DNA from: a virus
Lineage: Duplodnaviria > Caudoviricetes
Virus record (IMG/VR): IMGVR_UViG_3300032335_000635
Coordinates: 1 to 30,417 of that record
Reading direction: 5' to 3' (one strand)
Length of the DNA stretch: 30,417 nt
Positions 1 through 17,326 of the stretch are shown in pieces; the stretch's first letter is position 1, and the number at the start of each line of letters is the position of its first letter. The position numbers and the translations under genes were made by a program. The notes below the pieces were generated by a model, which made no database searches, was not told the origin of the DNA, and worked only from the letters and a program-made list of their open reading frames with translations.

Positions 1-226
1 CTCTCTGCGGCGTGTAGTGTCACAGCGTGTCACGGTCCCGTGCGGTATCAACAAAGACAAGTCCCCGTGTTTGTCCCGCTCGGGAACTGTCACTTTTCGA
101 CAGCTTCTTTCAGTAGCGGAGTGTGGCGGTTGGCATTATCGCGGTTTCGTAATAGTGGTGTTCGTCGTTTCGCGGCGGCTAGGCGTCGAATCTGCGGTGC
201 GCTATCTTGCGAGCGTGTGATTATCG

Positions 227-262
227 TGGGCTATACGGAACGGTAGAAACACTGGTTCTCAC
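227..262 (+). mobile_element. attI-like integron recombination site (crossover G/TT at 255-257)
   Basis: TATACGGAACGGTAGAAACACTGGTTCTCAC: AAAC(247-250)-N4-GTT(255-257) simple-site layout with no attC-type hairpin upstream. GTTCTCAC is the exact reverse complement of GTGAGAAC (547-554), the R'' box of the next attC. Confidence 0.6.
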
Positions 263-264
263 GT

Positions 265-591
265 TTACGGCTCGTCCCGCCAGTCGCACAGGTCGCACAG
301 CGGCAGACGGACGCCGTACCCGTTCTCTGCTGTCAGGTCTTCCGTAACGCCAACGTCCCCAAACCTAGACACCATGACGAGTTTGACCGTGCTGCCAGCA
401 GGAATGGGAATTTCCACTTCCTTGCTGTCTCGCAGGTGCAGCATCAAAACGTCGCGTTTCAGTGTCGCGTATCGGTGCGGCCAAGTTTCCGGCTTGTGCG
501 GCATCCAGCCGCGAGACATGGCATGGTGTTCGGCGGCGCGGTCGAAGTGAGAACCAAGCATTGGAGCAGACCCGTCAGCGTCCTGTTTCAT
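265..591 (-). CDS. cassette 1 ORF, hypothetical protein (108 aa, MKQDADGSAPMLGS...VMVSRFGDVGVTEDL)
   Basis: RBS GAAAGGA 7 nt before ATG at 591, both inside attC-A. The stop lies a few bp from the attI-like GTT, so the ORF fills the cassette. Confidence 0.7.
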   Translation of the reverse strand: MKQDADGSAPMLGSHFDRAAEHHAMSRGWMPHKPETWPHRYATLKRDVLMLHLRDSKEVEIPIPAGSTVKLVMVSRFGDVGVTEDLTAENGYGVRLPLCDLCDWRDEP

Positions 592-633
592 ATCAACGTC
601 CTTTCTCGGGCTGCTCAATGCAGCCGTTCTGTG
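547..633 (+). mobile_element. attC site A
   Basis: R'' gtgagAAC (AAC 552-554) ... GTT (626-628). Arms GCATTG[G]AGCAG[A]CCCG / CGGGCTGCTCAATGC pair with two extrahelical bases, the classic attC layout. Confidence 0.85.
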
Positions 634-638
634 GCTAC

Positions 639-962
639 TCAAAAGCAAAACGCCTGCGCCCATCTCAACGCCCAGTATGCCGCTTCGGCAACCTTCATCC
701 CGTTGCGCCTATGTGATCGGTATGCCCTGACGAAAACAACAGGAGCCGCCGCAGTTCTCAGAATCGAACCTCCGCACACCGCCCATCGCGGGACGGTTCC
801 GATGGCCTCTAGCAACATCACTTGCTGCCGGTGCGTGAGAGACTCAAACAATTCGCGGGTGGTGATTGCGGTCGCCATGTCATCCGGCCTGCCAGTGGAA
901 ACAACCCGCACAGAACCAAGCGATGCAACGGACGGCGGGTCAATGTCGTTTGGTGTTGTCAT
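639..962 (-). CDS. cassette 2 ORF, hypothetical protein (107 aa, MTTPNDIDPPSVASLGS...)
   Basis: ATG lies inside the attC-B loop and the stop lies just inside the cassette boundary next to attC-A R'. Confidence 0.6.
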   Translation of the reverse strand: MTTPNDIDPPSVASLGSVRVVSTGRPDDMATAITTRELFESLTHRQQVMLLEAIGTVPRWAVCGGSILRTAAAPVVFVRAYRSHRRNGMKVAEAAYWALRWAQAFCF

Positions 963-1000
963 GCCTTGCGTTCGCCGCTCCTGATCCTGCGTGTTCTCAG
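909..1000 (+). mobile_element. attC site B
   Basis: cacagAAC (914-916) CAAGCGATGCAACGGAC ... CCTGATCCTGCGT GTT (993-995). Its R'' CACAGAAC is complementary to GTTCTGTG at 626-633. Confidence 0.8.
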
Positions 1001-1102
1001 GGTGTCCCCAAACTCATGGCGCACACAGGGCGGTCGGTCAACGTCGTTCCGCTCCTGCTATCGAATGCTCTCCGATTGCTCGGCATATTGACCATCGAAT
1101 CA

Positions 1103-1198
1103 ACACCCTGAGAACCACGCGATGCAGCGGACCCGCGATGCCGCCGTCTGGTTGTAGTTTCGTCAGCGGTCGCGGGCCGCTGATCTCTGGCGTTCAGT
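1103..1198 (+). mobile_element. attC site C
   Basis: ctgagAAC (1113-1115); arms GAT[G]CAGCGG[A]CCCGCGA / TCGCGGGCCGCTGATC; GTT at 1192-1194. ACACCCTGAGAAC (1103-1115) is a perfect 13-bp reverse complement of GTTCTCAGGGTGT (993-1005). Confidence 0.88.
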
Positions 1199-1412
1199 GC
1201 AACAGGTTCACCAATTCGTGTGGCACCATCGCTCGCACCGCCTCCAGTGCGTGCGTCTCGTCCACGCCGGGCGAGCCGTGCTTCAGCCGGCCGCGACAGT
1301 GCTCGTCTATCAGCTCCAGGGCGATCAGGGCATCACGGCCCGCGAGAGCGTAGCGGTGCTCTCTATCGTCATCTGGGTCGCTCAAATCGAATCGGAGGGT
1401 GGCTGTTGCCAT
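1194..1412 (-). CDS. small phage hypothetical protein (72 aa, MATATLRFDLSDPDD...)
   Basis: Protein-like ORF directly preceded by a promoter. Its stop codon overlaps the R' GTT of attC-C. Confidence 0.8.
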   Translation of the reverse strand: MATATLRFDLSDPDDDREHRYALAGRDALIALELIDEHCRGRLKHGSPGVDETHALEAVRAMVPHELVNLLH

Positions 1413-1419
1413 GGGTCAG

Positions 1420-1447
1420 ATTCTACCGCCTTGCCTAGCAGGCGCAA
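1420..1447 (-). promoter_or_regulatory. sigma70-like promoter, probably producing a leaderless mRNA
   Basis: TTGCGC-16 nt-TAGAAT, then 7 nt (CTGACCC) to the ATG at 1412; no SD sequence. Confidence 0.6.
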
Positions 1448-12920: not shown

Positions 12921-12931
12921 CCCTTTCGTGT
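12921..12931. repeat. 11-bp direct repeat CCCTTTCGTGT, copy 1
   Basis: Identical to 13805-13815; abuts the stop codon of the recombinase gene. Confidence 0.7.
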
Positions 12932-13797
12932 TAAACCAGCGCGGGAGTTTTCGGCGTGTTCTTCCTGAGCTGCGACCAATCGCAATATGCCTGCTCAAAC
13001 AATGCTGGCGACCGATGGCCGAGGTGCAGGCGTCCGGCACCTGGCCGCTCCATCTCGCAGTGAGTCGCACCGCTTCGCCTGAGCCACTTCGAAGATCCGC
13101 CAACGCCAACGCCGTCGAGCAGCTGCCGCATGTGCCTCATCGCCATGCGCCGGCCGCAGGCCCATCCGAGGATCGTGCCGTTTGGTGACGCGGCCAGCAT
13201 CCCGTCGATCGCATCGAGACAAGCGGGCGTCAGCGGCCGCGACAGCGGGTCGCCTGTTTTCGATTGCGTCCACGACAGCGTGTCGCCGTCTAGGTGCTCG
13301 CGGCTGAACGACATCACGTCGCCGAACCGTGCCCCGCACTCGTAAGCGAGCAGCACCCAGCAGCGGAGAAACAGCCCGAGGTCTGCACCAGACCGCAGCT
13401 TGCGGCCGTTGTGTGCTTTGGTGGCCTCAATCAGCAGCCTCAGCTGCTCAATCGTCCACGCTTTTGTCGGCTTCTTTCGGGCCTTTACACGCATCACTCC
13501 GCGCGGGGCCTCGTCAATCAGGCCTGTTTCGTAAGCCCAGCAGTACAGCGTCAGCAGGATCGTGCGTTCTGACCGCACGGTCGTGCTCTCAAGCTGCTGC
13601 GCCCGGTCACGCAGGTATGCGTTCACGCGCTCTACGCTAATGCGGCCGCATCGCTCCGCGATCCTGAGCACGTTGCTGGCGTAATGCGTAGAGACGATCC
13701 GCTCGGCCAAGTACTTGTCGGCAACGCCCTTGAAGTTCAGGATCGCGTCGGCCGTTGCGTCTGCGACGCGACAGGCCAGGTTCTTTCTTCGTGCCAT
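12931..13797 (-). CDS. tyrosine recombinase no. 2
   Basis: YECGARFGD (R), QSKTG (K), KWLRRSGA (HxxR variant KxxR), HLGH and FEQAY (Y). Start MARRKN. Confidence 0.85.
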   Translation of the reverse strand: MARRKNLACRVADATADAILNFKGVADKYLAERIVSTHYASNVLRIAERCGRISVERVNAYLRDRAQQLESTTVRSERTILLTLYCWAYETGLIDEAPRGVMRVKARKKPTKAWTIEQLRLLIEATKAHNGRKLRSGADLGLFLRCWVLLAYECGARFGDVMSFSREHLDGDTLSWTQSKTGDPLSRPLTPACLDAIDGMLAASPNGTILGWACGRRMAMRHMRQLLDGVGVGGSSKWLRRSGATHCEMERPGAGRLHLGHRSPALFEQAYCDWSQLRKNTPKTPALV

Positions 13798-13958: not shown

Positions 13959-14222
13959 TCACCATTCCCCGCCGTAGCGGGCTTTCATTGCGTTGCTGTA
14001 CTCGTCATCCATGCCCAGCTCGTAGGCACGACGAGCGTGCTGATAGCCAGGCTTGATCGCCAGCTCGGGCTTGGGCGGCGTCTTCGGCTCGAGCACCTTC
14101 CCAAGGTCCGTTTCCATGGTCGCCCGCTCGGCTGCGATCTCTGCGGCCAGGTCATCGAGATACTTCCAATCTCGACGCTGGGCCTGCATGCGGTCTTCGT
14201 CTGGCTCAATTTCGTGGCTCAT
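13959..14222 (-). CDS. hypothetical protein
   Basis: ATGA overlap with the RecT-like gene; GGAGG RBS. Confidence 0.7.
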   Translation of the reverse strand: MSHEIEPDEDRMQAQRRDWKYLDDLAAEIAAERATMETDLGKVLEPKTPPKPELAIKPGYQHARRAYELGMDDEYSNAMKARYGGEW

Positions 14223-14881
14223 GCGCGGGCCTCCGCTTCGATCTCGGCTGCGTCGAAGTGCTCCACGTCGGTGTCGATGGCCTCGGCCTCGACGTGCTCA
14301 ATCCGCTGCACAGCCGGCTTGGGCTGCGTCACACGCACGGCAGGCTGCGGCCTGGCCGTCTGGTAGTCCTGCGCCTCTTCGGCCGTCACGAGGCCACGCA
14401 GGATGTCAGGGAACGCATCCCGTAGGGCGAACCCACGGGCACGCAGCTGCAGCATTCGCTTTGGGTACTGCGTCCACGGGCCTTGCTTGCCCCACAGCCC
14501 GGCACGCTTGGCGTCTTCCACGCTGAAATCGACACGGACGGGGGCCTGACCGCGACGCTTGGCGATGCACACAGCCTTCGGGTTCGGCGTGCCCTCGCCC
14601 TCAATCGTCTCAGTGATTTCCTCGCACACGGGCGAAGCTAGGCAGAGCGCCTTGGCCGAGTCGCCCCAAATGCTCGGCCTGCCGTTGATGTTGGCGATGC
14701 ACTGCAACGCCTGCATGGGGGCCAGCCCCAACTCGGCACCGAAGGCGATGGCCCCGGCACACTTCTCGGGCTGGTTTTGGTAGTCCTTCGGAACAAGCCC
14801 GCTCGACGCGGCGATCTTGCCCAGCGTCATCAGGTCGCCGACGGTGTTTACCCGTAGGCCAGTTGTCATATCCGTGCTCAT
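14219..14881 (-). CDS. RecT-like single-strand annealing / recombination protein
   Basis: GAELGLAPMQALQ, INGRPSIWG, AKRAGLWGK.GPWTQYPKRML..RARGFALRDAFPD. Confidence 0.75.
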   Translation of the reverse strand: MSTDMTTGLRVNTVGDLMTLGKIAASSGLVPKDYQNQPEKCAGAIAFGAELGLAPMQALQCIANINGRPSIWGDSAKALCLASPVCEEITETIEGEGTPNPKAVCIAKRRGQAPVRVDFSVEDAKRAGLWGKQGPWTQYPKRMLQLRARGFALRDAFPDILRGLVTAEEAQDYQTARPQPAVRVTQPKPAVQRIEHVEAEAIDTDVEHFDAAEIEAEARA

Positions 14882-16438: not shown

Positions 16439-17326
16439 ATGCTGCTGAGGGACTTTCTGAATGACCGTTACGCGGTGCTCCACAACCTGAAGCCGCGCAC
16501 CGTTGAGATCTTCGGACACTCTATCGACCGGCTGCGGGACTTTCTCGGGCGCGAGCCTGAACTAGCTGATTTTGACGATTTGACCATCGGCAAGTTCCTG
16601 CGGTGGCGGGCCGTCACGCCGCACCGTGGGCGGATTTGTGCCGCCGCCAGCGTTGCCAAAGATAAGGCCCACCTGGTCAGCCTGTGGAACGCTGCCGCCC
16701 GCAAGCGGCTTGTGGAGGTGTTCCCAGACCTGCCACGTGGCATCGTCAAGGTGCCGCACCGCTCGCCGTCTGCTTACACCGTGGACGAGATCAGCCGCAT
16801 GGTGCAGCAGGCCAGGCGGCGGTCAGGGCTGATCGGCCCGTGCCCGGCTCCGTGGTTCTGGACAACGCTGCTGATGTCGAACTGGTACACGGGCGAGCGG
16901 ATCGGGTCGCACCTCGAGACGCGGTGGGAGCAGGTCGACACGGCCCGCCGCACGATCACGTTTCTCTCCGAGCACCGCAAGGGGCTCGGGCGAACGATTA
17001 CACGGGCGATCACGCCGCAGCTGGCGTCCATGCTCCAGGCCGGGCGGCGAGCCTCTGACGATCTTGTGTGGCCCTGGACAGACCACAGGGCAGCGAACTC
17101 CATCTACCAGCGGATTAGGTACATCTGCCGGTCAGCGGGCGTGAAGCCGCGAGGCTTCCATGCAATTCGCAAAGCGGCCGGGTCGTACCTGAAGGCTGCC
17201 GGAGGTGATGCCACGGAGTTCCTGACGCACAAAGACTCAAAGACGACGCGGGATCACTACCTAGATCCCAAGATCGTTGGCGAGGCGTCGGCCCTGGACT
17301 TCCTGCCACCGCTCGACATTGGATGA
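16439..17326 (+). CDS. tyrosine integrase no. 1
   Basis: WYTGERIGS (R), HRKG (K), FHAIRK (HxxR), LTH and TTRDHY (Y); GGGAGG RBS. Confidence 0.9.
   Translation: MLLRDFLNDRYAVLHNLKPRTVEIFGHSIDRLRDFLGREPELADFDDLTIGKFLRWRAVTPHRGRICAAASVAKDKAHLVSLWNAAARKRLVEVFPDLPRGIVKVPHRSPSAYTVDEISRMVQQARRRSGLIGPCPAPWFWTTLLMSNWYTGERIGSHLETRWEQVDTARRTITFLSEHRKGLGRTITRAITPQLASMLQAGRRASDDLVWPWTDHRAANSIYQRIRYICRSAGVKPRGFHAIRKAAGSYLKAAGGDATEFLTHKDSKTTRDHYLDPKIVGEASALDFLPPLDIG

Follow-up and report, generated by a model that had tools for sequence, protein, structure and literature searches.

The attI-headed array and its attC sites

The 30,417-bp window analyzed here is the entire viral contig IMGVR_UViG_3300032335_000635 (CheckV completeness, 78%), and it carries near its left end an integron-type cassette array, in which three attC recombination sites follow an attI-type docking site. 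The contig is that of a tailed phage and encodes a major capsid protein, a tape measure protein, and a head-tail adaptor as well as RusA, RecT, and a beta clamp. It also has two tyrosine recombinase genes, a repressor gene, and one excisionase-like gene, and nearly all of its genes lie on the minus strand. An earlier note on this DNA had described the locus as a phage-borne array of integron cassettes with inverted genes, and every coordinate it gave for three palindromes and three cassette-end matches proved correct on checking. The array consists of the following features (ORF, open reading frame; aa, amino acids; scores in bits are from the covariance model and z scores from the folding comparison described below).

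200 to 261, plus strand: attI-type docking site with crossover G255|T256, a GAAC-N3-AGAA-N6-GTT register, and TAT(N)C repeats upstream
255 to 625, plus strand: cassette A, 371 bp
265 to 591, minus strand: gene A, 108 aa, no Pfam or PHROG family, ATG in the attC loop
548 to 632, top strand plus: attC A, 50.4 bits, z score -2.1
626 to 992, plus strand: cassette B, 367 bp
639 to 962, minus strand: gene B, 107 aa, no family, ATG in the attC loop
910 to 999, plus strand: attC B, a poorly folding hybrid, 39.0 bits, z score +0.7
993 to 1191, plus strand: cassette C, 199 bp, holding a decayed attC half at about 1049-1072
997 to 1095, minus strand: cassette C ORF, 32 aa, stop on the crossover heptamer, coding doubtful
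1109 to 1198, plus strand: attC C, a host-like subtype without a loop ATG, 69.9 bits, z score -3.7

We compared these sites with a set drawn from two collections. About 170 IMG/VR stretches contain a 21-mer from the sites, and 133 of these are in the set; a 19-mer is found in about 200 genome stretches, of which the set has 131, the matches listed being largely from Planctomycetota. Phage loci, 183 in number, contribute 261 distinct sites to the set, and 131 genome loci contribute 192 (the loci overlap); we cite individual loci by L numbers.

On the plus strand, each of the three sites reads R'' (ending in AAC), a 5-nucleotide (nt) spacer, an 8-nt L'' with one extra base, a second extra base A, the loop, a 7-nt L', a 6-nt spacer, and GTT, which is the imperfect R''-L''-L'-R' palindrome, with AAC/GTT triplets and 5/6-nt spacers, of attC architecture. 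A structural grammar picked out sites A and C alone in 30 kb and had no matches in 10 Markov-resampled windows, and a two-arm profile recovered all three sites, with no matches in 20 resampled windows. We also aligned 24 attC sites taken from six host loci (Pirellulales) that have intI; both partners vary at 13 of the 19 pairs in this alignment, from which we built a covariance model. Run on the full contig, as the earlier note had proposed, this host-trained model hit all three sites, with minus as the bottom strand; the best other place in the window scored 11.1 bits, and site C on the opposite strand scored 9.9. When bottom strands were folded and compared with shuffles, sites A and C folded well and displayed two extra bases each, as the note had seen. 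It had called site B more degenerate, and this site proved to be a hybrid of two subtypes, its left arm and loop matching an intact form in L317 and its right arm belonging to another subtype. The L'' and L' arms covary (8.1 of 9 pairs over 45 arm types, versus 6.5 when shuffled). Site C is 96% identical to one attC of the host integron L220, a blastn search with it against 50,697 GenBank phages gave no match, and an Rfam search of the window likewise found none.

The ends of each cassette pair with one another: GTTCTCAC at 255 with GTGAGAAC at 547 for cassette A, GTTCTGTG at 626 with CACAGAAC at 909 for cassette B, and GTTCTCAGGGTGT at 993 with ACACCCTGAGAAC at 1103 for cassette C. The earlier note had made this match its key evidence, and it does show that the cassettes are real units whose left ends match their own R''. 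Since the complementarity of GTT...AAC ends is strand-symmetric, it reveals units and cannot orient the array; polarity follows instead from the strand chosen by the covariance model, from the asymmetry of spacers and extra bases, and from the attC that travels with each gene. A reverse polarity, with the crossover at R'', was ruled out as a rule by the model strand and the co-travel of attC, and a crossover at R'' may account for some attC swaps.

The attI-type site is a nonpalindromic arm running to G|TT at the array head, constant before varying cassettes and resembling intI-linked attI sites. Four phage contigs (the window and three others) share the arm left of 255 as far as GTTCT and then diverge into four different cassettes, and an attI arm is present at 30 of 73 array starts in phage loci. 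A profile built from 29 other phage sites, with the window left out, scored 30.4 at 255 and 1.8 at the next best of 703 GTT triplets, and its 36 matches in phage loci were followed by attC in 34 cases and preceded by attC in none. Integrase motifs occur in 13 genome loci, and in six of them the end of the first cassette could be placed downstream of intI; the phage profile ranked the host site beside intI, which has the same register, at the top in five of these six. Of the 32 metagenome stretches (25 distinct) matched by an attI-only pattern composed from phage and host sites, 9 include intI sequence in the locus; attC lay downstream in 25 and upstream in none. The first gene was top-strand or unclear in the intI-bearing stretches, and bottom-strand in five of six distinct intI-less stretches with 3 kb upstream. 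The exact attI pattern of the window had no matches in the metagenomes. In the host loci L209, L212, L220, L227, L243, L252, and L261, intI itself lies on the attC top strand, with attI past its stop codon, unlike in class 1 integrons.

Cassette movement and inverted genes

Comparison of relatives, another check the earlier note had suggested, revealed that cassettes swap precisely at G|TT. Cassette A was found behind attC, not attI, in L133, L134, L135, and L140, with its boundary at G|TT, and it also occurs in runs X4 and X8, beginning at 255. The body of cassette B (623/625-933) was present in contigs of six of seven other runs, with 2-7 differences and in other contexts, and its homologue in L316 is likewise a cassette, with compensated ends; the body of cassette C was present in runs X3, X7, and X16. 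The 173 cassette contexts fell into 156 clusters. Among homologous cassette pairs, the right neighbor differed in 20 of 22, with identity dropping past GTTCT, and eight pairs stood behind attI in one phage and behind attC in another, where only GTT(CT) is common to the two kinds of site. In 122 of 151 distinct phage cassettes, at least 7 nt of the left end pair with the cassette's own R'', and in only 23 with the site it occupies. The right-hand attC, the cassette's own, was at least 80% identical in 10 of 20 comparisons (7.8% in the background), versus one of eight for the left-hand attC. The stretch from one G|TT to the next thus moves whole with its right-hand attC, the exceptions being cassettes with a swapped attC.

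Such exceptions include gene A, which occurs with three attC types, and because a gene can have its attC body exchanged, homologous recombination probably contributes. The attC-led forms of gene A, 94-88% identical, make up a shallow group among relatives without an attC-coded N terminus, and two of those relatives (L136 and L137) have no attC at the gene start. The gene A tree did not recover monophyly of the cassette form, which appeared in 46% of bootstrap trees (P0017 and P0018, without the core motif, were left out). L138, a complete phage of 40 kb in which PF00589 has no match, has gene A with its own attC and no left att site, possibly an orphan or a precassette.

We found that the genes of phage cassettes run opposite to the attC top strand, as the earlier note had said of the window. 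By the best ORF under a codon model, 120 of the 151 phage cassettes were bottom-strand, none was top-strand, and 31 were unclear; by the longest ORF alone, the split was 128 versus 23. The same layout as in the window recurs in 61 other phage loci. In the genome collection (97 cassettes), 49 were top-strand, 14 bottom-strand, and 34 unclear, and nine of those 14 sit on three short binned contigs (L203, L222, and L241), the cassettes on these contigs matching phage loci in eight cases. These three and a fourth short contig, L192, were filed as bacterial, contain phage-type inverted cassettes, and are probably misbinned phage or prophage DNA.

Genes A and B, moreover, are predicted to begin inside their own attC loops. 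A ribosome-binding site (RBS) with an in-phase ATG was present in the loop of 108 of 146 long phage attC sites, compared to 3 of 161 host sites (five suspect loci left out), and in 107 of 120 bottom-strand phage cassettes a stop codon falls within 12 nt of the crossover. In gene A, the ATG lies 8 nt downstream of AAGGA, the attC encodes the first 14 codons, and synonymous changes prevail in six of six comparisons; none of the Atlas look-alikes of its product carries a name. For gene B, the bottom-strand frame was best in the conservation test. Cassette C offers only a 32-codon ORF of doubtful coding value. Phage cassette cargo is small (median, 104 aa), and 106 representatives included 18 DUF551 proteins, two clear DNA methylases, and one HNH protein, the majority having no family. 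Median cassette length was 643 bp in host arrays and 361 bp in phage arrays. Very short, almost loopless attC sites of about 45-55 bp are common in phage arrays (L001-L132) and rare in host arrays.

Beyond the cassettes, the following features bear on how the array is read and recombined.

1194 to 1412, minus strand: gene D, 72 aa, fixed and not part of a cassette, with a stop codon overlapping the last GTT
1420 to 1447, minus strand: predicted promoter-like boxes (TTGCGC-N16-TAGAAT), directed from the attI-distal end into the array
110 to 136, minus strand: remnant (8 codons) of a D-family gene beyond attI, where L180 and L182 have full D-family genes
12931 to 13797, minus strand: second tyrosine-recombinase-like gene, not IntI (phrog_1, without TIGR02249)
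14219 to 14881, minus strand: RecT-like annealing protein, a candidate for attC arm exchange
16439 to 17326, plus strand: phage integrase-type tyrosine recombinase, not IntI (PF00589 and phrog_1, without TIGR02249)

Gene D was considered as a fourth cassette and rejected: it has no attC of its own, and 37 of 38 loci with a gene D homologue have no attC within 4 kb, which also marks the cassette platform as accessory. Pfam and PHROGs gave no family for the products of genes A, B, and D or of 1924-2424. The promoter-like boxes end 7 nt before the gene D ATG, and both are retained, with variable 16-nt spacers, in all 10 of the closest D loci and in 6 of the other 28; a sigma-70 scan of positions 1-2000 reported no promoters and did not detect the boxes. 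A cassette promoter beside attI reading top-strand genes is not what the window has, since its genes are bottom-strand and the candidate promoter stands at the far end. In many phages (e.g., L054, L075, and L180-L182), arrays have small D-family genes at one or both ends, and one of the two tyrosine recombinase genes sits beside RecT in a replication/recombination operon.

We also observed a second family of intergenic sites of about 21 bp, at 1-19, 1623-1636, and 1801-1818 in the window and in L142-L180, and absent from the genome loci. In these sites, inverted arms of 7 bp (CGCTCTT/AAGAGCG type) enclose one of a few fixed 7-bp spacers, usually with a stop codon just upstream on the coding strand and often with an RBS-like end, and the site cores occur in 16-17 contexts with 13-16 distinct left and right flanks each. 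They could be a second shuffling system, perhaps of a phage tyrosine recombinase, or operators. Between them lie mini hairpins of about 25-30 bp, AAC-stem-loop-GTT (83-105 in the window, and in D relatives), that resemble empty mini-cassettes.

The likely recombinase and alternative explanations

The array is a CALIN (attC sites clustered without an integron integrase) with an attI, not a complete integron, and it is integron-like with reversed expression logic. It has more than the at least two attC sites on one strand within 4 kb, with no integrase nearby, by which CALINs are defined in the available text of PMC4889954, and the 78%-complete window does not have an intI next to the attI. We searched the window and the phage loci by tblastn with the IntI of host locus L220, itself a TIGR02249 match at 443 bits, and obtained no match. 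In all 13 related records, 9 of them at least 90% complete, a search for IntI found nothing beyond two 60-residue generic matches (the positive control succeeded in two of two). With no intI on the contig or in these records, a host IntI acting in trans is the likely engine. L220, a Planctomycetaceae locus with intI and chromosomal neighbors, has as the first cassette at its attI (484-821) an inverted DUF551 gene whose attC is short and of phage type, as expected if the host IntI handles phage cassettes. A separate IntI search of viral contigs gave one distant locus, L314 (a 42-kb record), with a 43% IntI homologue and an unrelated attC type.

We consider it likely, on the sequence comparisons above, that the window array is an integrase-less integron platform shuffled in trans by the IntI of a planctomycete (Pirellulales-type) host. 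The earlier note's proposal that the phage uses integron recombination thus stands as to attC, attI, and swapping at G|TT, while the enzyme would be the host's and attC exchange would offer a further route. The host IntI would excise cassettes by attC x attC recombination during infection or lysogeny, for which the phage has integrase, excisionase, and repressor genes, and the circles would enter the phage attI by attC x attI recombination, again with IntI in trans. IntI expression is linked to the SOS response in other bacteria, according to the available text of PMC8946536, and such expression would coincide with prophage induction.

Transcription would probably run from the promoter before gene D toward attI, and with the array read from its far end, new cassettes would join the end of the operon and not its start. 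The loop of a long phage attC would provide the RBS, the start codon, and the first 14-20 residues, so that each long attC would serve as a stop-hairpin-RBS-start module, and the upstream gene's stop on the crossover would couple translation. With the polarities opposed, neither kind of cassette would be expressed in the other's setting, host-type cassettes on the phage or phage-type ones behind the host cassette promoter. By a second route, attC bodies would be exchanged, probably by homologous recombination in shared attC arms.

Several observations weigh against a host-driven integron platform. An intI could lie elsewhere on the phage genome, given the 78% completeness of the window, and a generic tyrosine recombinase (PF00589) occurs in the window and in eight of nine near-complete relatives. 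Inverted phage-type capture in the host amounts to one cassette of 98. No circular or exact-deletion cassette forms were found in the contigs of the runs (contigs only; joints with unknown sequence between their sides were not counted as excisions). In folding, site B does no better than shuffles, attC was less than 80% identical in 46 of 128 gene pairs (many near the threshold, and some of them host pairs), and clear attC swaps break 5-20 nt after R''. There is some circularity in the attI profile, whose seed motif can be seen in the window as well as at host sites, and the host attI of L252 came 18th in its ranking. A codon model trained on the window's genes puts the B and C ORFs below zero, though B has conservation support. 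Finally, the strict promoter motif follows only 4 of 57 array ends and so is not general.

It seems unlikely that the cassettes are moved by a tyrosine recombinase of the phage itself (16439-17326 or 12931-13797) mimicking IntI. Two such genes in the window, and PF00589 matches in most array-bearing relatives, speak for this possibility, yet neither gene matches TIGR02249 or the host IntI, both lie 12-16 kb from the array in the lysogeny/replication module, and the phage attI and attC are of the types found in host intI-linked arrays. IntI, in addition, requires an extra domain for folded single-stranded attC, which counts against a phage enzyme. Given that most relatives have a generic tyrosine recombinase, this alternative is weakened and no more. 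There is also little probability that the sites now act mainly as homology patches, shuffled by RecT-type recombination between coinfecting phages, with the att features as relics. The RecT gene, the hybrid site B, and the attC bodies exchanged on one gene would fit such a history, and the D-family genes bordering many arrays could move arrays whole. Homology cannot easily place the same cassette behind attI or attC, however, when the two share only GTT(CT), as in the eight pairs above; the R'/R'' match goes with the cassette and not with the occupied site; and the L''/L' arms covary.

A single capture of part of a host integron, now decaying and with incidental antisense ORFs, is highly improbable. 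The 96% identity of site C to a host attC and the degenerate look of cassette C suggest it, but the cargo is phage-type (DUF551 and methylases), purifying selection acts on the bottom strand, and the 156 clusters in 173 contexts point to continuing turnover; the cassette survey and the conservation test have largely refuted it already. The most remote of the explanations we considered is a faulty assembly, in which attC repeats produced a chimera or host sequence was attached to a phage contig. In contigs of the probable source run, unitigs end at attC repeats and no single unitig spans site C, but depth is even at 25-36 over positions 1-2500, one unitig spans attI into cassette A, and the 61 other phage loci repeat the layout. 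The gene content of the contig marks it as phage. A misjoined A-B-C-D order is possible and would leave the conclusion unaffected.

Beyond the host-driven platform itself, we raise a more tentative possibility: planctomycete phages may own a cassette pool minted from phage genes by an in-frame 5' attC that acts as a portable start signal, with the recombinase and docking site common to phage and host, and with opposite polarity silencing each side's cassettes. The shallow grouping of attC-led gene A forms described above speaks for such a pool, with the limit that their monophyly was recovered in 46% of bootstrap trees. If true, the pool would represent both a natural route of cassette birth and a host enzyme exploited by phages. 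Cassette birth is listed as an open question in reviews (in the available text of PMC8618304), and attC-led starts would be a candidate route to it.

Comparison with known systems

Integron strand selectivity is taught as a means of expressing cassettes from a promoter beside attI, and in other bacteria the integron integrase stocks anti-phage cassettes. Dozens of phages here keep host-type attI and attC and yet invert the genes, turning the hairpin loop into a predicted translation start, and the single inverted phage cassette at a host attI provides a testable case of phage-host cassette traffic. Annotation tools that assume top-strand genes would misannotate inverted arrays, and attC-coded starts would give a reason for the spurious N-terminal motif that recurs among many small phage proteins.

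Phage CALINs, i.e., attC arrays without intI in phage genomes, have been published, and five of their attC sites recombine with IntI1 (available text of PMC9892861). We checked the phage CALINs TJE1 and PH101 attC1 and found their genes on the attC top strand, the canonical arrangement, in contrast to the bottom-strand genes, loop starts, and host-type attI of the window. The available text of PMC9892861 does not describe inverted genes and gives attI only for temperate phages carrying integron pieces. A literature search, excluding most subscription journals and bioRxiv supplements, found no report of inverted phage arrays with a host attI, and the available text of PMC13108822, PMC8876359, and 10.1101/2022.09.11.507474 had no bearing on cassettes of inverted orientation. 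CALINs have been proposed to be mobilized in trans by an integrase encoded elsewhere (available text of PMC4889954 and PMC11389934); as treated there, they are bacterial and thought to arise from integrase loss, whereas the window would belong to a phage-specific cassette pool with its own polarity.

A close likeness is to the sedentary chromosomal integrons of Pirellulales/Planctomycetota (L209, L212, L220, L227, L243, L252, and L261), which share the attC family, the attI register, G|TT, and the end match. The attC family common to phage and host has bottom-strand extra bases C and T and 5/6-nt spacers. The host integrons differ in having intI, longer cassettes, top-strand genes, and the rarity of a loop RBS and ATG noted above. 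With class 1 attI1 and attC, the window has in common a bottom-strand hairpin, extrahelical bases, an AAC/GTT crossover, and attI direct repeats (available text of PMC5027507 and PMC8946536), although it has C, and class 1 sites G, as the first extrahelical base. Strand selectivity, in the available text of PMC5027507, guarantees cassette orientation. In class 1 integrons, by the same partial sources, it sets the genes under Pc beside attI, while in the window the genes face attI and would be read from the opposite end.
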